Position numbers and translations under genes: made by a program
The notes under the pieces: model-generated
What the model was told of the DNA's origin: nothing
Seen by the model: the letters and a program-made list of their open reading frames with translations, nothing else
The model's database searches: none
Source of the DNA: Bacillota bacterium
GTDB lineage: Bacteria > Bacillota > Clostridia > Oscillospirales > Acutalibacteraceae
Reading direction: 5' to 3'
Assembly (NCBI GenBank): GCA_023458755.1
Contig: JAEWYE010000058.1
Span: 7,505-71,504 of the forward strand
Length of the DNA stretch: 64,000 bases
Shown here: positions 6,371 to 58,922 of the stretch, one piece after another
How positions within the stretch are numbered: position 1 is the stretch's first letter
How the letters are laid out: every line of letters begins with the position of its first letter

Positions 6371-6409
6371 ATAAGAATAATAAATCTATGCATTGAGGGG
6401 GTATTTATC

Positions 6410-36212: not shown

Positions 36213-37793
36213 ATGTCGATCTATTTCAGTAAACTACTGAATTTCTTTAAAAAGCATTTCTCTCTCATTTTGATTATATTGTTTAGTATTACCATCATTC
36301 CTATACTGGTGGTTTCAATCTTTAACTGGGCAGCAGGCGATGATTTTCGTTTTAGTATACAAACACATCAAGCAATGACGGCATCAGGATTTCCCGTTTT
36401 CAATGTCATAAAAGCAGCAGCGGGGATTGCTGCAGGCTCCTATTTTCAGTGGCAGGGAACTTATTCTGCCATTTTTCTAATGGCTCTGCAGCCCGCCATA
36501 TTTTCGCCAAGAGCTTATATTGCGGTTACATTTATCTTAATGGGAGCATTGCTATTCAGCACGGTTTATTTGCTAAATACAATTCTTTCCAAATGCTTTC
36601 ATTTGGAAAGAAAATATATTATATATATTGCGGTTCCCATGCTGTTTTTACAGATTCAGTTTGTTCCTGCACTGGTTGAAGCGTTTTATTGGTATAATGG
36701 CGCAATATATTATACTTTTTTTTACTCCATCATGCTCTTATATATCAGTCAACTCATGCAAATTTATTTCAATAAAGACAAGAAATATAAGAAAGCTTTC
36801 ATTCTTTCCATTGTTTTAGCAATCGTACTGGGTGGGGGGAATTTTGTTACTGGGATCCTAACAACGCTGATTGGTTTGTGTTTTGTGGCTTTTTCGTTGA
36901 TCAATCATTCGACACAAACCAAAAGAACGATACTCCTTGGACTTACGGAGGCTATTCTCCTGATTTCGTTTGCTGTTAGCATCGTGGCACCAGGAAATTC
37001 TGTGCGGCAGCAATTATCAACCAAATCGAGTCTGTTAAATACAATTGGCAACAGCATTGGTCAGGCTGTAAAGGATATTAAGAATTGGACCACTCCGACT
37101 GTCATCATTATATGTTTGTTATTGGTCCCCGTAATAGTAAAAATAGTAAAGCAAACCGATTTGCAATTTCGTTGGCCAGGAATATGGATTGGCTTTACTT
37201 TTTTACTATTTGCCGCCCAAAATGCACCGCCATTCTATGCACAATCCTTTGCTGGGCGAGGCAGATTACGCAATATTGTTTTTTATTCTTTCATTTGGTT
37301 TGTCTTTATTAGTCTGTTTTACGGTATTGGCTGGCTTCAAAGGACATATTCGTCAGCGTTTTCCAGACTCTACAACTCTATAACAGAAAAATTTACTTCA
37401 AAAGAGATTCGTTCAACCAAGAATGCAGTATTATCGATTCTTGTCGTTTTACTTGTAGCGGTAAATTTAAGAACAGCGACTCTCAACAAAATCAGCAGTG
37501 TTATCTGTTCTTCCGACCTCATCACCGGAAAATCTGCGGCTTACAGCAAACAGCTCAGTGACCGACAAAGCATTATTGATAATCCAAACATTGATGTAGT
37601 AAGAATTCCTGCCTTAACGGTATACCCGGAGAGCATAGCGGCCGACGAAATAACCTATGATGAAAATAGCTGGAGAAATAAAAGTATGGCGATTTTTTAT
37701 AATAAAAAATCCATCGTAAAATACAATAAACCGGTTGCTAAACAGGCAACGCCTAAGAAAGCAACCCCACAAGAGCCGGTCATGCTGAACTGA
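36213..37793 (+). CDS. Polytopic membrane protein, GT-C-glycosyltransferase-like (paralog A of 60154..61731)
   Basis: About 11 TM helices and a DD motif (WAAGDDFRF) in the first extracytoplasmic loop after TM1. The ~100-aa soluble C-terminal domain has no known catalytic signature. Confidence 0.7.
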   Translation: MSIYFSKLLNFFKKHFSLILIILFSITIIPILVVSIFNWAAGDDFRFSIQTHQAMTASGFPVFNVIKAAAGIAAGSYFQWQGTYSAIFLMALQPAIFSPRAYIAVTFILMGALLFSTVYLLNTILSKCFHLERKYIIYIAVPMLFLQIQFVPALVEAFYWYNGAIYYTFFYSIMLLYISQLMQIYFNKDKKYKKAFILSIVLAIVLGGGNFVTGILTTLIGLCFVAFSLINHSTQTKRTILLGLTEAILLISFAVSIVAPGNSVRQQLSTKSSLLNTIGNSIGQAVKDIKNWTTPTVIIICLLLVPVIVKIVKQTDLQFRWPGIWIGFTFLLFAAQNAPPFYAQSFAGRGRLRNIVFYSFIWFVFISLFYGIGWLQRTYSSAFSRLYNSITEKFTSKEIRSTKNAVLSILVVLLVAVNLRTATLNKISSVICSSDLITGKSAAYSKQLSDRQSIIDNPNIDVVRIPALTVYPESIAADEITYDENSWRNKSMAIFYNKKSIVKYNKPVAKQATPKKATPQEPVMLN

Positions 37794-38399: not shown

Positions 38400-40253
38400 T
38401 TGGAGCAAACTGAAATGAAACATTTTCAAATCATCCGGAAACGGATGTCGAGGCTCTCGTTCAAAGTCTTTTTATTACTGATTTTTTGCCTGATTATTCC
38501 AATGTTCTGCATGTTCAGCTATATGAAATCGAACTTCGAACAATATATTCAAGACGAGTTGAGCAATAAAATTATCCAAGGTATGGCCAGAAGCGAACAG
38601 GGAATTTATAAATCGCTTCAAAACATGGCCAACCTCTCCAGTGTTATTGTGATGAACAAAAATTTGGAAGATACCATGTCCGACCCCAACAATAGCTATT
38701 ATAACAAAACATTGGCATTTGACAGTGCGGTAAAGAATTTGATGGCCGCCAATCTTTTCACGATAAATGACATTAAAATTACGTTTTTGGATGTTCAGGG
38801 CAATATATACTCAAATTGGAGTATGGATTACCACGATTATTCCTTCCTTTTTAACCAGAATTGGGTTCAGGAAAGTATCAAGCAAAAGGGGCACACCATA
38901 TGGAGTATGTTTTCTCCCGGATATATCATTGAACCAAATCAAAAAGAAGAAAAATATATTTCATTGGCACGTTCCATGCTGAGTGACGGCATAACAGGAA
39001 ACCGTATCGGCACTCTTATCATCAGTATTGGGCAAAGCCAGTTCAATGACTTGCTCATGCAGTATTCTTATTCGCAGGATGATCTTGTCTATGTTTGTTT
39101 AAATAACGGTGATATTTTATTGAAAAACAAGCCGCAGGAACCCCTGCCCGACGCACATGTCAAAGCGAAAGTCGGACTTGTTCCGATTGGCTCAAGCGGC
39201 AGCCTGCGTGACGAATATCAGGGAAAGCAGTACTTGGTAAGCTACTATACACTTTCTGAACCGTGGACCTTTAACGGACAAAGACTGGTCGTCATGTACT
39301 ATACGGATTACCGCGGCGTCTTGACGCAGATGAACAAGCTTTCCCAGCAAATTGATTTAAGCATGATGGCATTTTTTGTCGTGATTGTTTTGCTGATGAG
39401 TTTTATTTCCACGCGGTTGGTAAAACCGATCCGTGTACTGGCACGGCAGATGCAGGTGTATTCGATTGACAAAGAGCTGCACGGATTGGACATGGCCCGG
39501 CAGGATGAAATCGGCCACTTGAATCGTGCTTTTTCAAAAATGCTGGACAATATACGCGAACTCTTCTCCAAACTGAACCACGAGCATGAAGTGCGCGAAA
39601 AATATCAGTTTGAGGCACTTCGTGCCCAGGTTAACCCCCATTTTCTGTTTAACACACTGAACATGATTCGCTGGATGGCTATTATCCGCAAGGCGGACAA
39701 TATTGTGGAAAGCATTGACGCACTTGTCAATATGCTGAAATTCAGTATGAGCCGGGGCGGCGAACTGGTATCACTGGAAGAGGAGCTAAGCAACATACGC
39801 AGCTATGTTTTTATACAGAACAGCCGATTCGGAAACCGATATGAAGTGAAAATCGACATCAGCCCCGAACTTTTGCCGCTGCAGGTTATCAAGTTTATTT
39901 TGCAGCCGGTCGTGGAAAACGCGGTTATCCATGGCTTTGACGAAGAAAGCGGGACAATTTGGATTTATGGAGAACGGGAAGAAGATATTCTAAAACTATA
40001 TGTAAAGGACAATGGAAAGGGAATTCCGCCCGATATAATCAATAAATTCAGTCAGTCAAAAGATATGCACCGCGATGAAAAGAAATTGACCGGAATCGGA
40101 CTTGCGAATGTCAACGAACGCATTCAGGTTACTTATGGAGAACAGTTCGGCATTCAGATTGACAGCCGGTTAGGGGAAGGCACGTTGGTTACCTATACGT
40201 TACCGGCTATAGAGGGGAGCGCGAAGGCAATTGAAGAAGGTCATGATCGTTGA
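38400..40253 (+). CDS. Sensor histidine kinase, YesM/LytS-like (two TM segments, HAMP, His_kinase, HATPase_c)
   Basis: HAMP region, an H-box in QVNPHFLFNTLN, and N/G boxes of the GHKL ATPase. Confidence 0.85.
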   Translation: MEQTEMKHFQIIRKRMSRLSFKVFLLLIFCLIIPMFCMFSYMKSNFEQYIQDELSNKIIQGMARSEQGIYKSLQNMANLSSVIVMNKNLEDTMSDPNNSYYNKTLAFDSAVKNLMAANLFTINDIKITFLDVQGNIYSNWSMDYHDYSFLFNQNWVQESIKQKGHTIWSMFSPGYIIEPNQKEEKYISLARSMLSDGITGNRIGTLIISIGQSQFNDLLMQYSYSQDDLVYVCLNNGDILLKNKPQEPLPDAHVKAKVGLVPIGSSGSLRDEYQGKQYLVSYYTLSEPWTFNGQRLVVMYYTDYRGVLTQMNKLSQQIDLSMMAFFVVIVLLMSFISTRLVKPIRVLARQMQVYSIDKELHGLDMARQDEIGHLNRAFSKMLDNIRELFSKLNHEHEVREKYQFEALRAQVNPHFLFNTLNMIRWMAIIRKADNIVESIDALVNMLKFSMSRGGELVSLEEELSNIRSYVFIQNSRFGNRYEVKIDISPELLPLQVIKFILQPVVENAVIHGFDEESGTIWIYGEREEDILKLYVKDNGKGIPPDIINKFSQSKDMHRDEKKLTGIGLANVNERIQVTYGEQFGIQIDSRLGEGTLVTYTLPAIEGSAKAIEEGHDR

Positions 40254-41838
40254 TGACGAAATACTGGTGCGGGTCGGCATAAAATCTATCTTAAACTGGG
40301 AAGAACATGGGTATAGTGTGGTGTGCGAGGCATCCAACGGCAGGGACGCACTGGAAAAGATTCAGCAGTATCAACCGGATTTGGTATTAACAGATTTGAT
40401 GATGGATAAAATGGACGGGTTCGAATTAATTTCGCAATGCAAAACACTGTACCCCAAAATCAAATTTATTGTGCTGAGCAGCTACAATGATTTTGATAAT
40501 GTGAGAAAAGCAATGAAAATCGGTGCTGCGGATTATATTTTCAAACTTACCGCGAAACCGGAGGATATGCTGTCCGTATTAAATGAAGTCAGTAAATCCT
40601 TGGAAGAAGTCCCGAAGGAAAATTCGGACTCCATATTGTTGAAAAACATTTCGGCCATTAAAAACAGATTGATTAAGATCGCAATTCAGCAGAGCTATTT
40701 AAAAAAATCCGAGCTTCTGGAGGAGTTTACTGCCCTGAACCTGAAAACAGATTTTAATCGGGACTATGTGTCCGTTTATATCAGTATCGATAATTTTTAC
40801 GCCAAACAAAGAAACGGCACCTTGTCCGAAATCCAGCTTCTTAAATTTTCAATTGAAAACATCGTGGATGAAGTCATGAACAAAAACAGGCAGGCGGAAA
40901 CGTACAACTACGATCAGGGCGATTTAATCGTATTAATCAATGTTGGGGCGGAAGAAAGGTACGACAGCCTGTGTATGGATTTGAAAAAAGATGTCAGTAC
41001 GATTGCCGAATATGTAAAACGATATATGGGTGTTGAAATATCCGCTTCTCTCAGCGGCATTTTTACGGGTGTCGATCAGATCAAAAGTGCGGTAAGTCAA
41101 AATCTGCAGGCGCTTTCCAGGCGCTTTCTGTCAGGCAGGGAAACTTTACATGTTTTTCACAGTGAGAATGCCGACAGCACCGAGTTTAACCTGCCGGATG
41201 ATCTTAAGCCGGCAAGGTTGCAAAAATTGCTCTGGGACGAAAATTTTGAACAGATACAAGAGTATTTAAACGAGCTATGGAGCTTTTTTCAATCGGAAAA
41301 GGTGCAGAATTCAGAGAAAATACGAATTGAACTGTTGGAGCTGTATCATCATTTTCGCAAACATGCAAGCAAAAACCGAATTGCTTTTGATAATCTGGTC
41401 GATGAAAACAGCTTGAGTTTATACGAAGCGATTACCCGCTACGACCGGATATCCTGCATAGAAGAAAGCTTTTCCTGCATTCTTGGCCAGTATCGCCTGC
41501 AGTTTGAAAACTTTGTGCAGGTAAAATGCCGCAGCGAAATTAACGAAGTAAAACAGTATGTACGGCAGAATCTAAATGCCGATTTAAGCGTGCAGGCGGC
41601 GGCTAAACTAGTAAATATGAGCGAAAGCTATTTTTCTCATCTTTTTAAAAGTGAGATGGGAATGAGCTTTATTAATTATGTGAATAAAATGCGTGTAGAA
41701 CATGCGGAGACCTTACTTCGCGAGACAAACGGGCGAATCAGCGAAATCGCGCTGGAAGTGGGAATTGACAATCCTAATTACTTCAGTGTTTTGTTTAAAA
41801 AGATTACAGGAAAATCCCCAAATGAATACCGAAGCTGA
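40231..41838 (+). CDS. Two-component response regulator with AraC-type HTH output (YesN-like)
   Basis: Receiver domain (DDE...D...K) plus a C-terminal AraC HTH. Overlaps the kinase gene. Confidence 0.85.
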   Translation: MKKVMIVDDEILVRVGIKSILNWEEHGYSVVCEASNGRDALEKIQQYQPDLVLTDLMMDKMDGFELISQCKTLYPKIKFIVLSSYNDFDNVRKAMKIGAADYIFKLTAKPEDMLSVLNEVSKSLEEVPKENSDSILLKNISAIKNRLIKIAIQQSYLKKSELLEEFTALNLKTDFNRDYVSVYISIDNFYAKQRNGTLSEIQLLKFSIENIVDEVMNKNRQAETYNYDQGDLIVLINVGAEERYDSLCMDLKKDVSTIAEYVKRYMGVEISASLSGIFTGVDQIKSAVSQNLQALSRRFLSGRETLHVFHSENADSTEFNLPDDLKPARLQKLLWDENFEQIQEYLNELWSFFQSEKVQNSEKIRIELLELYHHFRKHASKNRIAFDNLVDENSLSLYEAITRYDRISCIEESFSCILGQYRLQFENFVQVKCRSEINEVKQYVRQNLNADLSVQAAAKLVNMSESYFSHLFKSEMGMSFINYVNKMRVEHAETLLRETNGRISEIALEVGIDNPNYFSVLFKKITGKSPNEYRS

Positions 41839-42024
41839 AAATGAAAGGTAAAAAGCAGAATTGTGATAGTGCTTCTTTCCTCTTTCTGCATAAGGCGCAA
41901 AATTTCATAATTTCATAGCGGTTTTGATAAGAATAAGAGCAGAATGGATGATTCCACCCATCTGCTTTTTCTTATATAATGAAGTCACAAAACAACTTGA
42001 GACAATTTATGAACTCAAGAAATA

Positions 42025-43416
42025 ATGAGGAGGATGTTTATGAAACTGAAAAAGTTAGCAGGTGTTGTACTCGCTGGTGCTTTAATAGCTTCGACTATTA
42101 CTGGCTGCAGCGGCGGTACCGCAAGCAGCGCGGATGGTTCCAAGGATTCGGCTGCTGCGTCTCAAAAATCCGGAAAAACCGTTACCCTTCGTGTGTGGGG
42201 CGGCGTTCCGCCCGAATCCGGCCCGCAAAAATCCATTGACGCGTTCAATGAAGCATTTAAGGACAAAGGAATTCAGGCAGAATACGAAAGATTCGTTAAC
42301 GATGACACCGGAAACCTGAAGCTGGAAACCAGCCTTATGGCCGGCAGCGATGTAGATTTGTACATGACCTATACTCCGGCTCTCCTGCAAAAACGTGCAT
42401 CCGGAAATATGGCTCTTGATTTGTCCAAACTCATTGAACAGGATAAATTTGATGTAACCGGCACTTTGGGAGATATTGCCAAATCCTATTACATTAACGG
42501 CAAGCCGTATTCCGTTCCGACAAAGCGCGATCAGTACGGAATTGTAATCAACAAAACTATGTTTGACAAGGCCGGCATTGCGGTTCCGACGGAATGGACT
42601 TTTGACGAATTCCGCGAGATCGCAAAGAAACTGACCAAAGGCGAAGGACAGGACAAGGTTTACGGTATGTTCTGGAATTCCCAGCAGGATCTCCTCTATC
42701 CCTTTAATTATCTCTCGGTACAGACCCTGGGCGGTGATCCGCTGTATAAAGCCGGCGGAAAAGAAGCCAATATCACAGACCCGGTAAACATTAAGAGTAT
42801 CGAATTAATCAACAACATGATGAATGTGGATAAATCTTCTCCGACTCATACGGACAGCGTAACGCAAAAGCTTTCACAGGAAGGCATGTTCCTTGCTGGC
42901 AAATGTGCGATGACAGTCGGCCCGTGGATGGTAAGAAGCATTAAGGATACCACACAGTATCCGCATGATTTCGTTACCGCGTTTGCCCCGTATCCAGTTG
43001 TGGAAAAAGGCAAAAGACAATATACACAGGGCGGTTACGGCGATTTCCTCTGCATTAATCCGAAATCCCAGAACGTCGACGCGGCTTGGCAGTATTTAAA
43101 ATGGTACGCAACAGAAGGCATGCTTCCGTTGGCTGCCGGCGGACGTGTGCCGTCTGCAAACACCTATAAGGCGGAGGATGTAACAAAATCTTTCCTTTCC
43201 GGCGCGGAAAAATTGTTTGACGCACAATCTACTCAGAAAATTTTAATCACACCTGCTTCCAATTACGCGGTTCCTACTATAACCACAAAGCTGCCTGAAA
43301 TCAACAAGATTCTTACAGAAGAACTTGAAAACATCTATACAGGCAAAAAGACCGTGCAGGATGGACTTGGCAACGCGCAGAAGCGTGCAAATGAGCAGCT
43401 GCAAAAAGCAGGCTGA
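42025..43416 (+). CDS. Sugar ABC transporter substrate-binding lipoprotein (family 1 SBP)
   Basis: Lipoprotein signal LAGALIASTITGCSG, followed by an SBP_bac_1-like sequence. Confidence 0.85.
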   Translation: MRRMFMKLKKLAGVVLAGALIASTITGCSGGTASSADGSKDSAAASQKSGKTVTLRVWGGVPPESGPQKSIDAFNEAFKDKGIQAEYERFVNDDTGNLKLETSLMAGSDVDLYMTYTPALLQKRASGNMALDLSKLIEQDKFDVTGTLGDIAKSYYINGKPYSVPTKRDQYGIVINKTMFDKAGIAVPTEWTFDEFREIAKKLTKGEGQDKVYGMFWNSQQDLLYPFNYLSVQTLGGDPLYKAGGKEANITDPVNIKSIELINNMMNVDKSSPTHTDSVTQKLSQEGMFLAGKCAMTVGPWMVRSIKDTTQYPHDFVTAFAPYPVVEKGKRQYTQGGYGDFLCINPKSQNVDAAWQYLKWYATEGMLPLAAGGRVPSANTYKAEDVTKSFLSGAEKLFDAQSTQKILITPASNYAVPTITTKLPEINKILTEELENIYTGKKTVQDGLGNAQKRANEQLQKAG

Positions 43417-43495
43417 ACAGCATAATTTCGTGAGGGGGAAGAGAATTCTTCCCCCTCTTTTAAAAAACTGAGATTGATCGAAAGGAGGAGAACAA

Positions 43496-44383
43496 ATGAA
43501 ACTGAGCAGACAGCTAAAAACCGATTTAACGGGATACACATTCATTTTGCCGAATATCATTGGTGTTGCTTTGTTTACATTGTTCCCTATGGTATTTTCC
43601 CTTATCATCAGCTTTACGGACTGGGATTATACAAAAGGTTTTGGAAATTGGAATTTCATAGGATTTCAAAATTATGCCGGAATGTGGAAAGACGAGTGGT
43701 TTATTGCATCGCTTGTTAACACGATTATTTTTGCTGTCGTGGTGGTTCCCGTTACGATCGCGCTGGCCTTGGTTATCGCGGTGGTGATTGATAAATTTTG
43801 TTTCGGTAAATTGCCGATTCGCTTGGCAATGTTTATGCCCTATATATCCAATGTAGTAGCGGTTGCCATTGTGTGGGTCATGATGTATTCTCCATGGGGC
43901 CCCTTTACACAGCTGATTAAAATGTTCGGAGTAAAAAATCCGCCGCAATGGCTGGGTGACAGCAACTGGGCGCTCATGGCAATTATATTGATGACCATTT
44001 GGTCAAATGTCGGGTATTCGGTTATGATTTATACGTCGGCTATTCAAAGTCTGCCCAAAGATGTGTACGAAGCAGCCGATGTGGACGGAGCCAGTGAAGT
44101 CCGTAAATTCTTTCAGATTACCGTTCCGTTCCTGACACCGACTACCTTCTTCTTGGTGATTACTACCTTTATCACATCCTTCCAGGTGTTCGCGCCGATT
44201 CAGATTATGACAAGAGGCGGCCCGGGAACCTCAACGCACGTGCTGGTTTATTATATTTACACCTCGGCGTTTACCTTCTACCGCATGGGTTACGCTTCCG
44301 CCATGTCCTGGATTCTGTTCCTTATTTTGTTTGCAATTACCATGGTAGAGTGGCGCGGACAGAAAAAATGGGTAAGTTATTGA
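43496..44383 (+). CDS. Sugar ABC transporter permease (MalF/UgpA-like)
   Basis: Six TM helices and the EAA loop (YEAADVDGASEVRKFFQITVP). Confidence 0.85.
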   Translation: MKLSRQLKTDLTGYTFILPNIIGVALFTLFPMVFSLIISFTDWDYTKGFGNWNFIGFQNYAGMWKDEWFIASLVNTIIFAVVVVPVTIALALVIAVVIDKFCFGKLPIRLAMFMPYISNVVAVAIVWVMMYSPWGPFTQLIKMFGVKNPPQWLGDSNWALMAIILMTIWSNVGYSVMIYTSAIQSLPKDVYEAADVDGASEVRKFFQITVPFLTPTTFFLVITTFITSFQVFAPIQIMTRGGPGTSTHVLVYYIYTSAFTFYRMGYASAMSWILFLILFAITMVEWRGQKKWVSY

Positions 44384-45285
44384 TGAAGGAGGGTACAACT
44401 GTGGCACATCAAATTGTAAAACGTAAAAACGTTGCATACAAAACTCGAAAACTGTTGATTCGTATCATTATTACTGCTGTTATCGGTGTATTTGCCCTGA
44501 CAATGATTGTACCGTTCCTTTGGATGCTGTCCGCTTCTATGAAGCATCCGCTGGATGTTATGAAGCTGCCAATTGAATGGATTCCAAAATATTTCTATAT
44601 TGACAATTACCGGATTGTATGGAATATCGGCAATTCCGCTCCCCGCGATTATCATCTTGGTCTGGCTTACTGGAATTCGATTAAAATCGCGGTCATCAAT
44701 CTGGTCGGTTCCGTACTCACCAGTACCTTGGCGGGCTATGCGTTTGCAAAAATCAAGTTCCGCGGTGCCAACGGAGTTTTTCTGGCGTATCTCGCTACGA
44801 TGATGATACCCACCCAGGTGACGCTTATTCCGAAATTTGTCATGTTTGACAAGCTTGGAATTATGGGTACGCATCTCACTATGATTCTGCCGGGACTTAT
44901 TACGATAACGGGTACATTCTTAATGCGCCAGTTCTTTATGCAGGTGCCCGATGAGCTTTCCGAATCCGCCAGAATTGACGGAGCGGGAGAATTCCGAATC
45001 TGGGCGCAGATTATGGTTCCGATTGCAAAGCCCGGTATGGCTTCACTTGCCATGATCGTGTTTTTGTGGAACTGGAACAATTATCTGGACGCTTTGGTAT
45101 TTTTAACAAACTGGAGATTATATACGCTGCCGCTGGCTTTGACAAATTTCATCGAAGAAAGTGTAACGCAGTATAACTTGGTAATGGCGGCATCCGCTTC
45201 CGCCTTGCTTCCGGTCTTTATCATCTTTTTACTGGGGCAGCGCTTCTTTGTCAAAGGCCTTATGGCTGGTGCGGTAAAAGGATAA
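44368..45285 (+). CDS. Sugar ABC transporter permease (MalG/UgpE-like)
   Basis: EAA loop (ESARIDGAGEFRIWAQIMVPI). The start is uncertain: ATG 44368, ATG 44383, or GTG 44401, which has the best RBS. Confidence 0.8.
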   Translation: MGKLLMKEGTTVAHQIVKRKNVAYKTRKLLIRIIITAVIGVFALTMIVPFLWMLSASMKHPLDVMKLPIEWIPKYFYIDNYRIVWNIGNSAPRDYHLGLAYWNSIKIAVINLVGSVLTSTLAGYAFAKIKFRGANGVFLAYLATMMIPTQVTLIPKFVMFDKLGIMGTHLTMILPGLITITGTFLMRQFFMQVPDELSESARIDGAGEFRIWAQIMVPIAKPGMASLAMIVFLWNWNNYLDALVFLTNWRLYTLPLALTNFIEESVTQYNLVMAASASALLPVFIIFLLGQRFFVKGLMAGAVKG

Positions 45286-45319: not shown

Positions 45320-46630
45320 ATGAATAGTATAACGGAGCCGCAAAAGCAGATTCCGGTAGCCGCTGAAGTGGACGTTTTGGTTGTCGGTGCCGGACCCGCA
45401 GGCTTTTCCGCCGCAGTATGCGCCGCGCGCGAGGGCGCGAAAACAATGCTGATTGAACAGACCGGTGATGTAGGCGGTGTTGCCACCACCGGGCTGATGA
45501 GCCACTGGACGGGGAATACGCAGGGCGGTTTTTACGAAGAAATTTTGGATCGCTCCGCGGAGGCGGGGGGCGACTGGGATACAGCCGAATTTAACGGGGG
45601 CTTGCGTCAGGTTATTAACCCGGAGCGGCTGAAAACAATCATGCTTCAAATGTTGGACGAGGCCGGAGTAAAATTGTGCCTGTATACGTTCTCCAGTGAA
45701 GCAATTGTGGAAAATGACCGAATAAAAGGTGTCATCGTTCAAAGTAAGGCAGGCCGTCAGGCAATCCTTGCGAAAGTAATCATTGATGCCACCGGTGACG
45801 GCGATATTGCCGCCAGCGCGGGAGTTCCGTATCAAAAGGGCAGAGAAACCGACGGCAAAATGCAGCCGATGAGCCTTATGTTCAAGGTAGCCGGTGTCGA
45901 TGTGGAGCGCGGTGTTTTTCCGGGCGGGTTTGAGGAAACTTTCCAAATCCCAAAGGGAGATATTCAAACACTTGGGCGTGAACATATTCCTTCACCTGCC
46001 GGTCATGTGCTGCTGTATAAAACTACACTGCCCGGTGTTGTTACCTGCAATATGACCAACTGCATTGATGTGGACGGCACCAATCCGGACGACCTTACCC
46101 ATGCAACCTGTGTGTGCAGAAACCAGATCGATCCGATTGTAGCGTTTCTGCGCGAATATGTGCCGGGATTTGAAAACTGCTACCTGATCAGCTCCGCTTC
46201 TGTTATTGGTGTGCGGGAAACACGCCATTTTAAAGGGGAAGCCTGTATTACGGAGCAAGATATCCGTGACGCCCGTGTTTTTGAGGATTGGGCGGTAACA
46301 CGTGTAAGCTTTAATTTTGATATACATAATCTTACCGGAAACGGATTGGATGAAACCGGCGAGCAAAAGCACTTTAAGCAGAAAAAGGGCTATACCATTC
46401 CTTACGGGTGCCTGGTGCCGGTGAAAATCGACGGTCTGCTGCTGGCGGGAAGAGATATTTCCGGAACACATATGGCACACTCAAATTTCCGCGTAATGCC
46501 GATTTGTGCCAATATGGGTCAGGCAGCCGGAATTGCGGCCGCAATGTGTGTAAAACAGAATATTCAGCCGCGCGTACTGAATGTAAAACGACTTCAAAAC
46601 AGATTAATGGAGCAGGGTGTAAAGCCCTGA
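45320..46630 (+). CDS. FAD-dependent oxidoreductase (PF12831-like), function unknown
   Basis: N-terminal dinucleotide fold VLVVGAGPAGFSAAVCAAREGAKTMLIE, and GD...TGDGD motifs. Confidence 0.7.
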   Translation: MNSITEPQKQIPVAAEVDVLVVGAGPAGFSAAVCAAREGAKTMLIEQTGDVGGVATTGLMSHWTGNTQGGFYEEILDRSAEAGGDWDTAEFNGGLRQVINPERLKTIMLQMLDEAGVKLCLYTFSSEAIVENDRIKGVIVQSKAGRQAILAKVIIDATGDGDIAASAGVPYQKGRETDGKMQPMSLMFKVAGVDVERGVFPGGFEETFQIPKGDIQTLGREHIPSPAGHVLLYKTTLPGVVTCNMTNCIDVDGTNPDDLTHATCVCRNQIDPIVAFLREYVPGFENCYLISSASVIGVRETRHFKGEACITEQDIRDARVFEDWAVTRVSFNFDIHNLTGNGLDETGEQKHFKQKKGYTIPYGCLVPVKIDGLLLAGRDISGTHMAHSNFRVMPICANMGQAAGIAAAMCVKQNIQPRVLNVKRLQNRLMEQGVKP

Positions 46631-46637
46631 GAGAAAA

Positions 46638-48404
46638 ATGATGAATACTGTAATTTCTGAAAATTATGACTTTATCGTGGTCGGAGGCGGTATGTCCGGG
46701 CTTTGTGCAGCCATTGCGGCTGCGCGCGGCGGGGCAAAAACCGCTCTTGTGCACGACCGGCCTGTATTGGGCGGAAATGCCAGTTCCGAAATGCGCATGC
46801 ATATCTGCGGAGCGGATTATCACATGTCGCGTCCCAATGCCCGCGAAACGGGAATTTTAGAAGAAATTCTTCTGGAACACAAGCACCGCAACCCAAACAA
46901 CAGTTATCCGATTTTTGATTCTGTTTTATGGGAAAAGGCTCGTTTTCAGGAGAATCTTTCTTTGTATCTGAATACCAGAATGCTGGATGTAGAAGTGCGG
47001 GACGGAAGAATTGTTTCGGTTACGGCGGAACAGCTGACAACGGAAAAGCGATTCTGCCTGAGTGCACCCTTGTTTGCCGATGCGACCGGAGACGGTGTTT
47101 TGGGTGCCAAAAGCGGCGCGGAATATCGGATTGGCCGGGAAGGAAAAGCGGAGTACGGAGAGCAGTATGCCCCGGATGAGCCAGATTGCTGCACCATGGG
47201 AAATTCCCTTATGTTCCATGCTCATGACACAGGCCATTCCGTTCCGTTTGTAAAACCGTTTTGGGCGAATACCTATACGGAAGAACAGTTGAAACGGCGC
47301 GATCATGCACAGGTCACCTCCGGTTACTGGTGGATTGAACTTGGCGGCGGACAATATGAAATCATTCAGGATGGCGAAATTATCCGGGATGAACTGCTAA
47401 AAGCGGTATTCGGTGTATGGGATCATATCAAAAACGGCGGTGAACACCATGCGGAAAATCTGGAACTGGATTGGGTCGGATTTCTGCCGGGAAAACGTGA
47501 AAGCCGACGTTTAATGGGGCCTTATGTGCTGAAAGAACAGGACTGTCTGGAAGGCCGGCGTTTTGAAGACGCCGTAGCTTATGGCGGATGGCCGATGGAT
47601 GTTCATACAGTTGAAGGCTTTTTAACGCAAAACGAAGATCCGACGGTATGGCTTTCGTTGGATGATGTATATACGATTCCATACCGCTCTTTATTCTCCA
47701 TCAATATCAGCAATCTGTTTTTAGCAGGCCGCGCAATCAGCTGTACGCATATGGCGTTCGCGTCTTCCCGCGTTATGGCTACCTGTGCCGTAGTGGGGCA
47801 GGCGGTAGGTACTGCGGCTGCTTTGGCTGTCAAGAAAAAAACGGAACCATCCGGTATTTTGGAAGATATTCGCGAGCTTCAGCAAGTTCTTTTGCGTGAC
47901 GACTGCTACATTCCCGGTGTTGTCAATACAGATTCCCATGACCATGCGCGCGAAGCAGAAGTTACGGCCTCATCTTATGAACAAGACTGTCCGCCGGAAA
48001 ATGTCATGAACGGCGTAGCCAGAACGGTAGGCGAACAAACCAATTGCTGGCAGGCACCGGTAAAGGAAGAGCCTTGGCTGCGGCTGCGCTTTTTAAGCCC
48101 GGCTATCCTGCATGAAGTCTGCCTTACGTTTGATTCCAATTTAAGCAGAGAAATCACGATTTCCATTTCCGACGAGGTGCTGGCCCGTCAGGTACCGGGT
48201 ACCTCTCCCGAATTGGTACGGGATTACACGCTTCAGGGCTTTTACAACGGAGAAATGGTGTTTGAAAAAAATGTGTGCGGGAATTATCAGCGCCATTGTG
48301 TGATTCCGTTGGAAGTTCCGGTGCTGTGCGACGAAATCCTTCTTACCGTGAAGGCGACCAACGGCGCGGACATTGCCAAAGTCTATGAGGTTCGTGTATA
48401 CTAA
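46638..48404 (+). CDS. FAD-dependent oxidoreductase (PF12831-like), longer paralog with extra C-terminal domain
   Basis: N-terminal FIVVGGGMSGLCAAIAAARGGAKTALV; shares its architecture with the upstream paralog. Confidence 0.7.
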   Translation: MMNTVISENYDFIVVGGGMSGLCAAIAAARGGAKTALVHDRPVLGGNASSEMRMHICGADYHMSRPNARETGILEEILLEHKHRNPNNSYPIFDSVLWEKARFQENLSLYLNTRMLDVEVRDGRIVSVTAEQLTTEKRFCLSAPLFADATGDGVLGAKSGAEYRIGREGKAEYGEQYAPDEPDCCTMGNSLMFHAHDTGHSVPFVKPFWANTYTEEQLKRRDHAQVTSGYWWIELGGGQYEIIQDGEIIRDELLKAVFGVWDHIKNGGEHHAENLELDWVGFLPGKRESRRLMGPYVLKEQDCLEGRRFEDAVAYGGWPMDVHTVEGFLTQNEDPTVWLSLDDVYTIPYRSLFSINISNLFLAGRAISCTHMAFASSRVMATCAVVGQAVGTAAALAVKKKTEPSGILEDIRELQQVLLRDDCYIPGVVNTDSHDHAREAEVTASSYEQDCPPENVMNGVARTVGEQTNCWQAPVKEEPWLRLRFLSPAILHEVCLTFDSNLSREITISISDEVLARQVPGTSPELVRDYTLQGFYNGEMVFEKNVCGNYQRHCVIPLEVPVLCDEILLTVKATNGADIAKVYEVRVY

Positions 48405-48470: not shown

Positions 48471-51515
<3,045 letters not shown>

Positions 51516-51681
51516 TTTTTGCAATTTATAATATTGGTTTATCCATCAGTTGTTCGATTGAAAGAACTATACTGAATCAGAAAGGCGTAAGGTATAGCTT
51601 TATATCTTTACGCCTTTCTCTGTTTTGTTTCCAAATCAAATCTGGGGGAAGATTTGGATAAGCATTGAAAGGGGATTGTAT

Positions 51682-53361
51682 ATGTTTAGAAATATGAGAA
51701 TCGGTAAAAAATTAATTCTGACTTTTGTTTTCGTGACCGTACTGTCCAGCTGTGCGGGTGTGGTCGGTCTGATTCAGATGCGGAATTTAGACACAAATTA
51801 TGCGTATGCTTTAAACCATTATGGATTTGCACAGGCGGATATCGGACTTTTCCATGCGGAATTTAACAACAGCCGTACCATTATCCGGGATATTATATTT
51901 GAAACCGATACAGACACAGTGAATACATATTCCAATGAACTTACACAAATTAATGGTAAGGTCGATAGCTGCTTTTCCAATATGAAAAAGAATATGGCCA
52001 GCCAAAATGAAATTCGTTTGTATAATACGATAAAGGATACCTTATCTCAATATCGTGCAATCAGCGACCAAATTGTAATACTTGCGAAGCAAAACAAAAA
52101 GACCGAAGCACAGACATTTTTAAAAGAGCAGGGCGACCCTCTTTCCGACAAGATTTCCGCTTCCATTGATTCTTTGATTCAAGAAAATACATCAAATGGA
52201 AAGAAAGTGTCCGGCGATCTTGCCACGCAAGTGAACCTCTCCTATTTTACCATGATTGCGATTCTTGTTATTGCTTTGGCTCTTTCGTTCTTCATCGCTT
52301 TCACAATTGCGCGCGGAATCAGCAAGCCAATTCACGAAATGGAGACTGCTGCCCAGCGTATGGCACGGGGTGATTTGAATGTGGAAATTCAGGTGAATTC
52401 CAAGGACGAAATAGGAACTCTTGGTGCAGCCATGGCAAAATCTATGGCATCCATACGGTCATACATAGCGGACATTACAAAAACTCTTGGTGAAATAAAA
52501 CAGGGGAACCTAACAGCTGTTTCCCAATTGGATTATGTCGGCGATTATGCGGAATTAAAGGCTTCGTGCGACGGCATTCTGGAATCGTTAACGGATACGC
52601 TGGGGAATATTAATCAAGCGGCGGAACAGGTGGCAAGCGCTTCCGAGCAAGTATCCAACAGTTCACAAATGCTGGCACAGGGCGCGTCGGAGCAGGCAAG
52701 CTCCGTGGAAGAGCTTGCTGCGGCGGTCTCGGAAATATCCAACCACGTTCAGGAAAATACGGAACATGCAGAAGAAGCCAGAGCGAACGCAAACCGTGTT
52801 TGCGCGGATATTGAAATCAGCAACCGGTATATGGATGAAATGGTTGATTCGATGCAACAGATTCACAATTCATCCGGGGAGATCGGTAAAATCATTCAAA
52901 CGATTGAGGATATCGCGTTTCAAACCAATATACTTGCCTTGAATGCGGCGGTCGAAGCAGCCAGAGCAGGAGCGGCTGGAAAAGGCTTTGCCGTTGTGGC
53001 AGATGAGGTAAGAAATCTGGCGGGGAAAAGCGCCAATGCCGCGAAGGAAACGACTGCCTTAATTCAAAGCTCCATGCAGCAAGTGGAAAAGGGTACAAAA
53101 ACAGCGGATGCAACCGCAAAATCTCTGCTCCAAGTAATCGGGAGTGCACAGACCGTTTCGAATAATGTAGAGCACATCGCGCAGGCATCCCAAAAACAGG
53201 CAAGTGCAGTCAGCCAGATAACAACAGGTGTTGATCAGATTTCAAGTGTAGTACAAACAAACTCTGCAACGGCAGAGGAAAGCGCTGCCGCAAGTGAGGA
53301 GTTTTCCGGTCAGGCGCAGTCGTTAAAAGAATTGGTACAGAAATTCAAATTAAAAAACTGA
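51682..53361 (+). CDS. Methyl-accepting chemotaxis protein (4HB sensor, HAMP, MCP signalling domain)
   Basis: Two TM segments flank a ~170-aa helical sensor; HAMP; conserved MCP hairpin tip [22 protein letters not shown]. Start at [10 protein letters not shown] with an AAAGGGGA RBS. Confidence 0.85.
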
Positions 53362-53894: not shown

Positions 53895-55301
53895 ATGAAA
53901 AAGTCGAAAAAGCTATTGTCATTCGCACTTGCAGCTCTTATGATTGCTGGTGCAACAACCGGCTGCTCTAGCAACACGGGTACTAGCTCAGCAACCGCTT
54001 CCACGGATGCTTCCGCGGCAGCAAGCAGCACAGCAGGAGCCAAAGAATTCTTTTATTTGAATTTTAAACCGGAGACCGCAGACAAATACAAGGAAATTGC
54101 AGCGGCCTATCTCAAAGAAAAAGGCGTTACCGTTAAGGTCGAAACAGCGGCTCAGAATAAGTACGAAGAGACTCTGAGAACCGATATGCAGAAGGACGAC
54201 GCACCGGCACTTTTCCAAATCAACGGACCAGTTGGATACCAGAATTGGAAAGATTACTGCGCAGATATGACCGATTCTAAAATCTACAGCTATTTAACCG
54301 ACAAGAATCTCGCTGTAAAATCGGACGGAAAAGTGTATGGTGTTCCTTATGCGGTAGAAGGCTATGGCATCATTTACAACGACGCTATCATGAAGAAATA
54401 CTTTGCGTTATCCAACAAAGCAGTCAGCATTTCCTCTGCTGCGGATATCAAGAATTTTGATACCTTGAAAAAAGTTGCAGAAGATATGACAAAGAATAAA
54501 GCTGCGTTGGGTATTCAGGGCGTATTCGCTTCCACCTCCTTCAAGAAAGGTGAAGACTGGAGATGGCAAACCCATCTGCTCAATATGCCTTTGTACTATG
54601 AATTCAAAGACAACACAGCATCCCAAGATGTTATTTTGAATGGTTTGAATTCAAAGGAAATTACCTTTAAATATGCTGCAAATTATCAGAACATATTTGA
54701 TCTGTATTTGAACAATTCCTGCACAGACAAAAAATTGCTGAGCAACAAGTCTGTAGATGATTCTATGGCAGAGTTTGCACTTGGCAAAGTAGCAATGGTT
54801 CAAAACGGCAACTGGGCATGGGGTCAAATTGCTAAGGTGAGCGGCAACACAGTTAAAGAAGACGATGTGAAATTCATGCCGATTTACACAGGCGTTTCCG
54901 GCGAAGAAAGCCAGGGCATCTGTGTGGGTACCGAAAACTATTACGCAATTAACAGCAAGGTTTCCGCAGACAAACAAAAGGCTGCACTTGATTTTGTCGA
55001 CTGGTTATTCTCCAGTGCAACCGGTAAGAAATTTGCTACGAATGACTTAGGCCTCATTGCTCCGTTCAATACGTTCTCCGACAGTGAAAAGCCAAACGAC
55101 CCGCTGGCAAAACAGGTTTCCGCAGCTTTAGCGACTGGCAAAACGGTCGTGTGGACTTTCCCGGCATTCCCTGGCCAACAGTTTAAAAATGATGTCGGTT
55201 CCGTTCTTCTTGGATATGTTCAAGGACAAAAGAAATGGGATGACGTTGTAACTACTACCAAAAATTCCTGGAAAACTGAGAAGGCTAATATCGGCAGCTG
55301 A
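53895..55301 (+). CDS. Sugar ABC transporter substrate-binding lipoprotein
   Basis: Lipoprotein signal LAALMIAGATTGCSS, followed by SBP_bac_1 family sequence. Confidence 0.85.
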   Translation: MKKSKKLLSFALAALMIAGATTGCSSNTGTSSATASTDASAAASSTAGAKEFFYLNFKPETADKYKEIAAAYLKEKGVTVKVETAAQNKYEETLRTDMQKDDAPALFQINGPVGYQNWKDYCADMTDSKIYSYLTDKNLAVKSDGKVYGVPYAVEGYGIIYNDAIMKKYFALSNKAVSISSAADIKNFDTLKKVAEDMTKNKAALGIQGVFASTSFKKGEDWRWQTHLLNMPLYYEFKDNTASQDVILNGLNSKEITFKYAANYQNIFDLYLNNSCTDKKLLSNKSVDDSMAEFALGKVAMVQNGNWAWGQIAKVSGNTVKEDDVKFMPIYTGVSGEESQGICVGTENYYAINSKVSADKQKAALDFVDWLFSSATGKKFATNDLGLIAPFNTFSDSEKPNDPLAKQVSAALATGKTVVWTFPAFPGQQFKNDVGSVLLGYVQGQKKWDDVVTTTKNSWKTEKANIGS

Positions 55302-55436
55302 TTAGCTGACTATACCATTAAGTAAATAGGTTATACCGTTCCGTATTCAAATGCGGAACGGTATAACGATAATGGGTTTGGTGAGTCTGGATCATTTCGT
55401 CTGACTCACCGTTTTTACTAAAATAGGAGAAATGAT

Positions 55437-56282
55437 ATGGAGAAAACACTGAAAAAGTATTTTGGCATATTTGCATTGCCTACATTATTAGCATTTTTAC
55501 TATACTTTTTAATTCCGTTTATTTGGGGCATTTATCTATCTTTTACCAGATTCACTATTGCAACCGACGCTAAATGGATTGGTTTGCAGAATTATGTCAG
55601 AGCATTTTCCAATCAGGACTTCCTGCATGCGCTTGGGTTTACAAGTATGTTTACCGTTGTATCGGTTATTTCCATTAATGTCTTAGCTTTTTTCTTAGCC
55701 TATTTGTTAACCAGAGGAAGAAAAGGAACAAATGCGTTCAGAACCATATTTTTCATGCCAAACTTAATCGGCGGTATTGTATTGGGCTACATATGGCAGA
55801 TTATTTTTAACGGCATCCTGAGCAAGTTCGGAGTAACACTGACCTATAGTCCGGAATATGGCTTCTGGGGTTTAGTCATTATGATGAATTGGCAGTTAAT
55901 CGGATATATGATGGTTATCTATATAGCCGGTATTCAGAATGTTCCGCGAGAACTGATTGATGCCGCAAAAGTGGATGGAGCCACGGCTTGGGGAACTTTG
56001 CGCCACGTAACGCTGCCACTGGTTATGCCTTCCATTACGATTTGCCTGTTCCTTACCTTGACAAATTCCTTTAAATTATTCGACCAGAACTTATCCTTGA
56101 CAGGCGGCGAACCGCTGAATCAAACCGCTATGCTGGCACTGGATATTTACAATACCTTCTATAACAGAGGCGGCAGCTGGACCGGTGTAGGCCAAGCAAA
56201 AGCAGTTGTATTCTTTATTTTGGTTACGATTATTGCGTTAGTCCAGCTTACTATCACCAGAAAAAGGGAGGTTGAAAACTAA
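55437..56282 (+). CDS. Sugar ABC transporter permease
   Basis: Six TM helices and the EAA loop (IDAAKVDGATAWGTLRHVTLPL). Confidence 0.85.
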   Translation: MEKTLKKYFGIFALPTLLAFLLYFLIPFIWGIYLSFTRFTIATDAKWIGLQNYVRAFSNQDFLHALGFTSMFTVVSVISINVLAFFLAYLLTRGRKGTNAFRTIFFMPNLIGGIVLGYIWQIIFNGILSKFGVTLTYSPEYGFWGLVIMMNWQLIGYMMVIYIAGIQNVPRELIDAAKVDGATAWGTLRHVTLPLVMPSITICLFLTLTNSFKLFDQNLSLTGGEPLNQTAMLALDIYNTFYNRGGSWTGVGQAKAVVFFILVTIIALVQLTITRKREVEN

Positions 56283-57136
56283 TGGAAAATAATTCAATTC
56301 AAAACAAATCAAGAGTAAAAGAATATACACTGTTTTTATTCATGTCCTTATTGTCCGTTGTGTTTTTATTACCTATCCTTATTGTGGCCATGAATTCCTT
56401 TAAGGGAAAGCTTTATATCAGTGATAATCCTTTTGCACTGCCAAACGGCACTACGTTCTCCGGTATTGAAAACTACTTGAGCGGTATCGAACTTGTCGGC
56501 TTCTTTCAAGCTTTTGGGCTGTCTTTGTTTGTTACAGTCTTTTCTGTCCTCGTAATTGTTTTGTTTACCTCTATGACAGCCTGGTACATAGTCCGGGTAA
56601 AATCGAAATTTACTCGTATGTTGTATTATTTGTTTGTATTTGCCATGGTGGTACCTTTCCAAATGGTCATGTTTACAATGGTGAAAATGGCGAATATGAC
56701 ACATGTTGACAACCCGATTGGCATTGTTATTATTTATTTGGGCTTTGGCGCCGGTCAGGCTGTATTTATCTTTTCTGGGTTTGTCAAATCTATACCGCTT
56801 GAAATAGAAGAAGCCGCTGTGATTGATGGCTGCAATCCTTTTCAGACTTTCTTTAAAGTCGTAATTCCGATTATGAAACCGGTGGCAATTACAGTTGCGA
56901 TTTTGAATGTCATGTGGATTTGGAATGACTATCTGCTGCCCTATTTGGTGCTTGGTACGCAGGAATTCAAAACGATTCCGGTTGCGGTTCAGTATTTGAA
57001 CGGAGCTTACGGAGCTTCCAATATGGGTGCAATGATGGCACTTCTGGTTCTGGCGGTTTTGCCGGTAATTATATTTTACGTTCTCTGCCAGAAGTACATT
57101 ATTGAAGGTATCGTTGCGGGCGCCGTAAAGGGTTAA
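56282..57136 (+). CDS. Sugar ABC transporter permease
   Basis: EAA loop (EEAAVIDGCNPFQTFFKVVIPI). Its start overlaps the previous stop. Confidence 0.85.
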   Translation: MENNSIQNKSRVKEYTLFLFMSLLSVVFLLPILIVAMNSFKGKLYISDNPFALPNGTTFSGIENYLSGIELVGFFQAFGLSLFVTVFSVLVIVLFTSMTAWYIVRVKSKFTRMLYYLFVFAMVVPFQMVMFTMVKMANMTHVDNPIGIVIIYLGFGAGQAVFIFSGFVKSIPLEIEEAAVIDGCNPFQTFFKVVIPIMKPVAITVAILNVMWIWNDYLLPYLVLGTQEFKTIPVAVQYLNGAYGASNMGAMMALLVLAVLPVIIFYVLCQKYIIEGIVAGAVKG

Positions 57137-57165
57137 GTGATTATTGGATGCGGGAAGTGGTAATA

Positions 57166-58647: not shown

Positions 58648-58922
58648 TATTCCTTTATAATCTAAATTATAAGTTTTAGATTCTAACCTTCTTGTGAAGC
58701 CTTTCGGTCAACAGATGTAAGTCATCGGCTTGCATTTGTTGAGTGAGGGCTTTAAAATTCCGCTTGCTAAGGCGAAAATTTAAAGTGAATTCATATAAGA
58801 AATATCTGTATTTTTATTGCATTTTGTAACATAATTTGCTATATTTATTACTAAGAAACAGCAAGAGCTTGCAGCTTGATTGTGGCGCACAGGAAACTGT
58901 AGGTTAAAGGGAGAACAAGTGT

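Follow-up and report, generated by a model that had tools for sequence, protein, structure and literature searches.

Two tandem PF12831 flavoproteins are the sole conserved enzymes of a seven-gene sugar-import cassette

We analysed a 64-kb stretch of DNA from a Bacillota bacterium of the family Acutalibacteraceae (contig JAEWYE010000058.1), hereafter the window, in which two tandem genes on the + strand, here called FAD1 (45320-46630; 436 aa) and FAD2 (46638-48404; 588 aa), encode flavoproteins of the Pfam family PF12831. An earlier note on this DNA had described the pair as an oxidative step embedded in an import-and-hydrolysis operon, between a sugar ATP-binding cassette (ABC) importer and a glycoside hydrolase family 2 (GH2) beta-galactosidase. 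Both open reading frames (ORFs) lie in tandem where that note had put them, both have full-length Pfam matches to the family and begin with its GxGxxG motif, and Pfam matches of the flanking genes agree with the described location. Comparison of orthologous loci, however, reverses the picture of the operon: its functional unit consists of a two-component system, an ABC importer, FAD1 and FAD2, with no conserved enzyme other than the two flavoproteins. It is very probable that FAD1 and FAD2 are catabolic enzymes acting on an imported carbohydrate. Our best overall explanation, that they form the catalytic pair of a self-contained seven-gene carbohydrate cassette and work by the flavin-based mechanism proposed below, has in our estimate a probability of about one in three.

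More than 593 FAD1 loci were confirmed by pattern. We analysed the best 80, with one genome per species, and mapped the window proteins onto them with tblastn; denominators given below count the loci with enough flanking sequence. FAD1 identity across these 80 loci is 63-91%, and the hosts include Lachnospiraceae, Oscillospiraceae, Christensenellales, Caldicoprobacter, Paenibacillus and Spirochaetes, together with metagenome-assembled genomes (MAGs) labelled Armatimonadota, Chloroflexota and Omnitrophota. FAD2 directly follows FAD1 in 39 of 71 loci, genes for a solute-binding protein (SBP) and two permeases lie directly upstream of FAD1 in 38 of 62, and kinase and regulator genes are found further upstream in 32 of 54. 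The complete conserved order, histidine kinase-response regulator-SBP-permease-permease-FAD1-FAD2, is present in 29 of 51 species-level loci. Pfam-annotated contigs place the same seven-gene set amid unrelated flanks in Hungatella, Faecalibacterium, Caldicoprobacterales and gut Lachnospiraceae, with two abundant gut lineages represented, and in metagenomes FAD2 orthologues of at least 60% identity accompany the full cassette. All-against-all clustering of the ORFs of 89 loci yielded no additional gene family present in more than 16 of them. Hosts of the cassette are mostly strict anaerobes, and culturable ones include Hungatella hathewayi, Lacrimispora saccharolytica (FAD2 of strain WM1 is ADL04372.1), L. 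xylanisolvens, Paenibacillus etheri and Caldicoprobacter algeriensis.

A GH2 gene is found downstream in 2 of 57 loci (L010 and L011), both of the window's own clade. A LacZ-type GH2 follows FAD2 in these two, in the window and in one metagenome contig of the same clade (L093), and in no other locus analysed. Most cassettes stop at FAD2 and contain no glycoside hydrolase; in at least 21 of 40 there is no co-directional gene within 350 nt after FAD2. We conclude that the flavoenzymes are the core of the system and the beta-galactosidase an add-on. The analysis of neighbourhood conservation called for by the earlier note thus tied the flavoproteins to the two-component system and the importer; outside the window's clade it did not tie them to the GH2. 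Since the two flavoproteins are the only conserved enzymes of the cassette, they probably process the sugar in a way that has not been described.

FAD1 and FAD2 both match the entire 416-position PF12831 model (profile positions 1-416), with residues 18-429 (E 3.1e-114, 383 bits) and residues 11-418 (E 4.4e-90, 303 bits), respectively, where the curated gathering cut-off is 27 bits. They share the N-terminal dinucleotide-binding motif, which reads VVGAGPAG in FAD1 and VVGGGMSG in FAD2. The name of the family carries no function, in keeping with the earlier claim that it has no established biochemical role: we found no characterised member in PDB sequence and fold searches, in NCBIfam or in full-text literature searches (matches to papers on cockroach gut and Maribacter were irrelevant to FAD1/FAD2 function), and no NCBIfam model covers either protein. 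In a joint alignment of 30 FAD1 and 30 FAD2 orthologues, the FAD (flavin adenine dinucleotide)-binding motifs GxGxxG, GG, DATGDG and, at the C-terminus, AGRxIS.TH reach 90% conservation or more in each group, as do H62/H55 (FAD1/FAD2 numbering), GRE, G.RE[ST]R[HR], D314/D302, D323/D311, D334-x-H336/D321-x-H323, YTIPY and RVM..CA. The window proteins read GAGPAG, GG, DATGDGD, G.RETRH, D334-x-H336, YTIPY and AGRDISGTH in FAD1, and GGGMSG, GG, DATGDG, G.RESRR, D321-x-H323, YTIPY and AGRAISCTH in FAD2. Judging from these motifs, both proteins should bind FAD and would share a polar, Arg/His/Asp/Tyr-rich presumptive active site.

BLASTP aligned the two proteins at 38% identity over 148 aa of the C-terminus and 28% over 185 aa of the N-terminus (E 2e-23). 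They belong to separate orthologue groups, each with 59-98% identity among the hits listed. This low mutual identity, combined with separately conserved groups, indicates ancient paralogs rather than a recent tandem duplication. FAD1 is predicted to be cytoplasmic, and neither protein has a signal peptide; hence, both should act in the cytoplasm on imported substrate.

FAD2 differs from FAD1 by an additional domain that the earlier note had overlooked. Its flavin part (about aa 1-434; 46638-47939) carries the PF12831 match and the FAD1 motif set, and is followed by a C-terminal domain of about 155 aa (about aa 435-588; 47940-48404) with the fold of a beta-sandwich of the carbohydrate-binding module family 32 (CBM32) or F5/8 type C kind. 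For the window protein, the only sequence match of this domain is to DUF7402 (E 3e-4, under the cut-off); PF00754 is found in some orthologues. The best fold matches of the flavin part are to geranylgeranyl reductase, flavocytochrome c3 fumarate reductase, urocanate reductase, KstD, L-aspartate oxidase, FixC and GidA, across about 230-285 residues, which we read as alignment of the FAD-binding domain alone. The AlphaFold2 model of FAD1 has a mean predicted local distance difference test (pLDDT) score of 71, with low values at residues 53-67 and 307-363, and gives fold matches like those of FAD2, with template modelling scores of about 0.5. PDB sequence searches with either protein matched only the Rossmann segment, of about 40 residues, of unrelated flavoenzymes, and neither these nor the fold searches found a solved structure that shares their substrate domain. 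FAD1 and FAD2 lack a second NAD(P)- or nucleotide-binding domain and any Fe-S cysteine motif. Covalent histidyl-FAD attachment (an SHW/MHI motif compared with RSHT of FrdA) was considered and rejected, as manual alignment showed that the conserved His is out of register with the flavinylation site of FrdA.

Several features link the pair to carbohydrates: the CUT1-type importer, the CBM32-like domain of FAD2, the frequent fusion of FAD1-like relatives to F5/8 type C domains, and the presence of more distant relatives in loci with GH130, GH88, GH2, GH43 and esterases. Hints about the substrate come from genes appended after FAD2. In an unrelated MAG (L018; FAD1 71% identical), a GH42 beta-galactosidase gene overlaps the end of FAD2. 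That the non-homologous GH2 and GH42 were recruited independently to one position, and that FAD2 has a CBM32-like domain, point to a galacto-configured substrate, in what is a small sample; the galactoside part of the earlier suggestion that the pair oxidises a modified galactoside is plausible on these grounds. Elsewhere FAD2 is followed by genes for an epimerase, a nucleotidyltransferase, an APH-type kinase and a GH123-like protein (Caldicoprobacterales), by a D-2-hydroxyacid dehydrogenase gene (L056), or by LacI regulator genes.

In our proposal, a small glycoside enters the cell through the SBP and permeases; it would probably be galacto-configured or contain a beta-galactoside, and may bear an acidic or other decoration. 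The bound FAD of the flavoproteins would transiently oxidise a C-H/C-OH position of the sugar, which would make a bond labile, be it the glycosidic linkage or the attachment of a decoration. Electrons would then be returned by the second flavoprotein or by the same flavin, for a net redox-neutral reaction. In the organism of the window, the GH2 would afterwards remove or split off beta-galactose, and a GH42 would finish the job in another lineage. Redox neutrality is consistent with the anaerobic hosts and with the cassette encoding no electron-transfer flavoprotein (ETF), ferredoxin or other electron-transfer partner, in addition to the domain and motif content of the two proteins. We put forward such flavin-assisted, redox-neutral cleavage or deprotection tentatively. 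It is doubtful, though conceivable, that the pair founds a new carbohydrate-active class, in which cytoplasmic PF12831 flavoproteins, one with a CBM32 domain, replace glycoside hydrolases in a widespread cassette and use a transient oxidation by flavin, redox-neutral overall, for the cleavage or deprotection of a modified beta-galactoside, for example one that is ketal-pyruvylated, etherified or otherwise hydrolase-resistant.

The proposed mechanism would be the flavin counterpart of NAD-dependent non-Koshland pathways (GH4/GH109 and the GFO/IDH/MocA 3-keto-glycoside systems). Gut 3-keto-glycoside clusters (AL/BT) encode two paralogous GFO/IDH/MocA oxidoreductases with tightly bound NAD that take part in a redox-neutral cycle of oxidation, elimination, hydration and reduction (bioRxiv 10.1101/2024.03.25.586180). 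Like FAD1 and FAD2, these are paired paralogous oxidoreductases in a sugar-catabolic cluster, and their cycle is a mechanistic precedent for such a pair working with no external redox partner. Genes for GFO/IDH/MocA and TIM-barrel proteins also adjoin some solitary FAD1 orthologues (L079, L083, L051 and a Butyricicoccus plasmid), a further link to keto-sugar chemistry. The AL/BT clusters differ in using NAD and the GFO/IDH/MocA fold, and in having a sugar-phosphate-isomerase-like lyase and a DUF1080 hydratase, both absent from the FAD cassette. The enzyme FAD-GO deglycosylates by oxidising the 3-OH of the glycone with FAD and no hydrolase, but belongs to the GMC family, is re-oxidised by O2 and comes from aerobic soil bacteria (PMC4650693). 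We rejected it as a homologue, since FAD1 and FAD2 have no GMC domains in Pfam; their hosts, by contrast, are mostly strict anaerobes.

A number of observations weigh against this explanation. The nearest structural neighbours reduce C=C bonds or dehydrogenate C-C bonds, and do not oxidise alcohols. Several of the conserved candidate catalytic residues of FAD1 lie within residues 307-363, where pLDDT is below 50. Many FAD1 orthologues are solitary, with no FAD2, so that an obligate relay between the two is not required. The cassette lacks the lyase and the hydratase with which known 3-keto routes work, and the beta-galactosidase linkage is as rare as the counts above indicate, with GH42 in a single locus. 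PF12831 is large and heterogeneous, and relatives of about 33% identity in Arthrobacter and Roseibium lie with genes for CoA-transferase III, enoyl-CoA hydratase and aldehyde dehydrogenase. What we say of the pair beyond its anatomy and synteny is inference.

Among alternatives, the one that survives best, although we think it unlikely, is that the pair are ene-reductases or dehydrogenases like fumarate reductase, urocanate reductase or KstD. In a sugar derivative they would reduce, or introduce, a C=C bond in conjugation with a carboxylate or carbonyl group. Possible substrates are the 4,5-unsaturated uronate that a polysaccharide lyase leaves behind, and a keto-glycal/enone. Such a reaction would not be redox-neutral overall and might provide fermenters with an electron sink. 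The Arg-rich G.RE[ST]R[HR] motif conserved in both families would suit a carboxylate, and the N-terminus of FAD2 contains a PVLGGNASS motif, which we take to resemble one of the fumarate-reductase/KstD class. A FAD1 relative of 59% identity on a Butyricicoccus plasmid lies directly after a tripartite tricarboxylate transporter permease gene, and distant relatives adjoin CoA-transferase, enoyl-CoA hydratase and GH88 genes. However, alignment to the enzymes in question covers only the FAD-binding domain, about 230-250 residues: the match to PF00890, the family of fumarate reductase, urocanate reductase and KstD, is restricted to residues 11-55, the capping/substrate domain of those enzymes is unrelated to that of FAD1 and FAD2, and the combination of both domains that defines the PF00890 class was not found. 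The cassette supplies no partner to donate or accept electrons, such as an ETF, ferredoxin, cytochrome or NAD(P)H domain. There is no GH88/GH105 or lyase gene in or beside the core cassette, and the add-ons that have been recruited are beta-galactosidases, not uronate enzymes.

Somewhat less probable still is that FAD1 and FAD2 use oxidation to take a non-sugar group off a mono- or disaccharide after its import, leaving ordinary enzymes such as the GH2 to finish; LacZ-type enzymes may need undecorated galactose. The group removed could be an ether (lactyl or methyl), an amino group, or the 4,6-pyruvate ketal of galactose or mannose. This idea draws on xanthan loci in which a regulator and a CUT1 ABC importer accompany one "FAD-dependent oxidoreductase", namely xutR3-xutM1-3-xutN of Microbacterium (bioRxiv 10.64898/2026.04.20.719765) and PAI4-PAI8 of Paenarthrobacter (PMC12772297). 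Both systems release and import pyruvylated mannose, the fate of which is unresolved (bioRxiv 10.64898/2026.04.20.719765; PMC12772297). They follow the same logic as the FAD cassette, with a dedicated regulator, a CUT1 importer and a flavoprotein as sole enzyme, but have another type of regulator and a single flavoprotein, and XutN (MMX123_02549) and PAI8 (GMCHHGAN_003843) are only candidate members of PF12831. A Microvirga plasmid carries the same module (LacI-permease-permease-SBP-FAD), with a PF12831 gene of 37% identity. An Arthrobacter plasmid relative was also considered as a xanthan locus and rejected, since it lies in a CoA-transferase/hydratase cluster. A full-text search on pyruvylated sugars and depyruvylation found no depyruvylase that removes the pyruvate ketal; we likewise found no link between pyruvylated galactose and our genes, and a paper on PvGal-ase reports no gene cluster. 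The D-2-hydroxyacid dehydrogenase after FAD2 in L056 echoes XutB/PAI16, esterase genes flank the Paenibacillus relative, and FAD1-like (P0389) and FAD2-like (P0213) proteins are fused to N-acetyltransferase domains. Against decoration removal, hydrolysis of a ketal requires no redox cofactor, no gene for handling pyruvate, formaldehyde or amines is conserved in the cassette, and the argument is one of gene-order analogy. In one Spirochaetota MAG (L073), a URO-D-family gene (11320-12441) stands between FAD1 and FAD2, a single case. The URO-D family includes methylcobamide methyltransferases of anaerobic O-demethylase systems, and the insertion fits the removal of a decoration.

The version in the earlier note, in which a GH2-centred operon imports and hydrolyses the sugar while the flavoproteins add an auxiliary net oxidation, such as 3-oxidation of the glycoside into the canonical 3-keto-glycoside route, appears improbable. 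The gene order of the window and the lack of a terminator before the end of the GH2 gene fit it, as do GFO_IDH_MocA, AP_endonuc_2 and ThuA genes beside solitary FAD1 orthologues in a few genomes (L079, L083 and L051). Yet the GH2 is missing from 55 of the 57 species loci with downstream room, most cassettes being free of hydrolases, and we found no gene for a GFO/IDH/MocA protein or a xylose-isomerase-like TIM-barrel lyase among the 36 ORFs of the window scanned with Pfam (including 34 of the 41 of at least 200 aa). Moreover, known 3-keto routes use NAD-bound GFO or O2-dependent GMC enzymes, not PF12831. Least likely of all is non-redox catalysis in which reduced flavin acts as nucleophile or scaffold, as in UDP-galactopyranose mutase, for instance to convert a galactofuranoside to a pyranoside or otherwise rearrange a ring or linkage ahead of the beta-galactosidase: the lack of an encoded redox partner, the galactose-related context and weak matches of the FAD2 N-terminus to these mutases (E 5e-3 to 9e-3) would suit it, but the similarity is limited to the Rossmann motif (residues 9-54) and the cassette has no nucleotide-sugar genes.

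Beyond the cassette, FAD1 orthologues form one 50%-identity cluster, outside which no relative exceeds about 51% identity. Counting 50%-identity clusters from FAD1, the superfamily comprises 2,046 at E <= 1e-30 and 15,942 at E <= 1e-3. Fusions include an aminoglycoside-N-acetyltransferase-like domain in P0389 and GNAT domains in P0213. In metagenomes, FAD2-like genes of 47-58% identity occur directly after other CUT1 permease genes, frequently as tandem pairs and with no FAD1; pairs of such PF12831 + CBM32-like genes, in tandem or flanking the transporter, were seen on contigs L153-L155, L159, L163, L166, L172, L173 and L176. Pairing of PF12831 paralogs beside sugar importers therefore recurs beyond the seven-gene cassette. 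The Butyricicoccus plasmid relative is near GFO/IDH/MocA and sugar-phosphate-isomerase genes, a Paenibacillus plasmid relative stands in the order histidine kinase-response regulator-SBP-permease-permease-GH130-FAD-SGNH-SASA, and a Bacteroides plasmid relative closes a GH2-GH130-GH2-GH88-GH43 cluster. Solitary FAD1 orthologues also adjoin GH20-like, GH30, GH2, sulfatase and SASA esterase genes.

The relatives of about 33% identity lie in a conserved aerobic cluster on an Arthrobacter plasmid (L099, 12533-20724) and a Roseibium plasmid (L092, 5230-13955), in the order transporter, PF12831, CoA-transferase III, enoyl-CoA hydratase, (ferredoxin), DHDPS-like enzyme and aldehyde dehydrogenase. This organic-acid-like context indicates that PF12831 is functionally mixed and not exclusively carbohydrate-related, and its chemistry may be closer to C-C dehydrogenation. 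An uncharacterised family of about 460 aa adjoins FAD1 orthologues in four species (L084, 6212-7591; L077, 7462-8853; L031, 8580-9953; L089, 13576-15642). Its gene lies between a permease gene and FAD1 in Caldicoprobacter algeriensis and in a locus with LacI and SBP_bac_5 (Opp-type) genes in L084 and L077. A 459-aa member gave no Pfam match and no PDB sequence match; the protein may be a further partner enzyme.

Nine co-oriented + strand ORFs occupy 38.4-51.6 kb of the window. The sensor histidine kinase (38400-40253) is YesM-like, with an extracytoplasmic dCache sensor, HAMP, His_kinase (PF06580) and HATPase_c domains, and the response regulator (40231-41838) is YesN-like, with REC and AraC-type HTH domains and conserved synteny; together they have the domain make-up of a YesM/YesN-type two-component system. 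The importer has that of the CUT1 type, with an SBP_bac_1 lipoprotein (42025-43416; signal peptide and lipobox ...ASTITG|C) and two BPD_transp_1 permeases, the first (43496-44383) 69-93% identical in cassette orthologues and the second (44350-45285) supported by synteny. The SBP ORF opens with an ATG at 42025, followed by AGGAGG and two further in-frame ATGs; translation probably begins at the third of these codons, the one at 42040 (MKLKKLAG...), just after AGGAGG. Among solved structures we found no close relative of the SBP whose ligand is known; the best match was 4rk2 (E 3.7e-18). No ATPase gene is present in the operon, and a shared ATPase is assumed. The GH2 gene (48471-51515), a lineage-specific add-on of LacZ type, encodes the five-domain GH2 architecture and matches the solved beta-galactosidase 9m0e with E 7.6e-266, with NCBIfam equivalog scores under their cut-offs.

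Intergenic gaps are 34 nt between the second permease gene and FAD1, 7 nt between FAD1 and FAD2, and 66 nt between FAD2 and the GH2 gene; the tight, co-oriented spacing described earlier holds, with each gap one nucleotide below the figure then given. In several Lacrimispora loci (e.g. L042, L049) the stop of FAD1 and the start of FAD2 share 4 nt, which suggests translational coupling. The spacer between FAD2 and GH2 has no significant terminator-like fold (z -1.25), and none of the operon contains a terminator until a strong hairpin 3' of the GH2 gene (51579-51632; stem of about 18 bp, then a U-rich tract), at -22.9 kcal/mol and z -5.4, with 0 of 200 shuffles equally stable. A small hairpin after the SBP gene (43434-43452), from a pattern scan, is possibly a partial terminator or mRNA-stability element. 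Co-transcription of the flavoprotein genes with their operon neighbours, as proposed earlier, is thus plausible from the sequence.

Control by the YesM/YesN-like system, also proposed earlier, is backed by conserved synteny and by an operator-like palindrome next to a -10 box. Aligning the spacer between the regulator and SBP genes of the window with those of L010, L011, L012 and L093 outlined a putative operator and promoter of the transporter/enzyme operon (41850-41982, + strand), in which two boxes are invariant and the intervening sequence is variable. Box 1 is AAAAAGCAGAATTGTGATAG (41850-41869); Box 2 is the imperfect palindrome GCAGAATGGATGATTCCACCCATCTGC (about 41939-41965), also written as GCAGAATGGATGATTCC-CCATCTGC, and abuts a TATAAT -10 box (41975-41980). 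The resemblance to a regulator-dependent promoter is only suggestive, because the genomes compared are close relatives. Rfam at the gathering threshold found no FMN (flavin mononucleotide) riboswitch or other RNA family in the entire window.

Directly after the operon terminator lies a gene for a methyl-accepting chemotaxis protein (MCP; 51625-53361; 4HB_MCP, HAMP and MCPsignal domains). Its TTG start at 51625 overlaps the terminator, so that the true start is probably later. MCP genes of about 35% identity lie just downstream of FAD2 in L028 (13811-14935) and L127 (2166-3290); the proximity of an MCP gene to the cassette might reflect chemotaxis to the sugar it imports, or be due to chance. 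Two genes for DUF6056 membrane proteins (36213-37793 and 60154-61731) bracket the sugar-utilisation region and lie where the GC content of the window is at its lowest (0.36, and 0.31-0.35, compared with about 0.45-0.49). A separate maltodextrin-type operon (53895-59954) encodes SBP_bac_8, two permeases, a GH77 4-alpha-glucanotransferase and a LacI regulator. A GalT gene (11266-12780, - strand) belongs to a region rich in sugar catabolism, and a gene for a RibU-like S component of an ECF-type riboflavin transporter lies at 6335-6973. The sole Pfam match of a 566-aa protein (13627-15327, - strand) is a C-terminal type I dockerin, which indicates that the host probably has a cellulosome-type system; its N-terminal part of about 500 aa is unannotated.

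Gram-positive polysaccharide cassettes under YesM/YesN-type control exist, such as the yes rhamnogalacturonan genes of B. subtilis, and a Gram-positive polysaccharide utilisation locus comprises a regulator, a transporter and at least one carbohydrate-active enzyme. The cassette resembles them in its PF06580 kinase, REC-AraC regulator, SBP_bac_1 lipoprotein and two permeases, all co-oriented. In those cassettes, however, the enzymes are glycoside hydrolases or lyases, whereas here two flavoproteins are conserved and a hydrolase is found in few lineages: the window has one in its GH2, and most orthologous cassettes have none. PF12831 genes in glycan loci are already familiar to specialists, and a two-component system with a CUT1 importer and enzymes is a known architecture, but we did not find a conserved flavoprotein pair in place of hydrolases described.

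The cassette offers a clean entry to PF12831, being compact and autonomously regulated, with two flavoproteins as its sole conserved enzymes and with culturable hosts. Identification of the SBP ligand would directly name its substrate. The cassette could reveal a flavin-based route of glycan breakdown or deprotection in anaerobic gut and digester communities, and an assignment would permit re-annotation of many "FAD-dependent oxidoreductase" genes beside sugar transporters. Should the enzymes prove to be ordinary dehydrogenases, theirs would still be the first function within PF12831; if they do represent a new carbohydrate-active class, many PF12831 genes by sugar transporters or in glycan loci would gain their first assigned chemistry.

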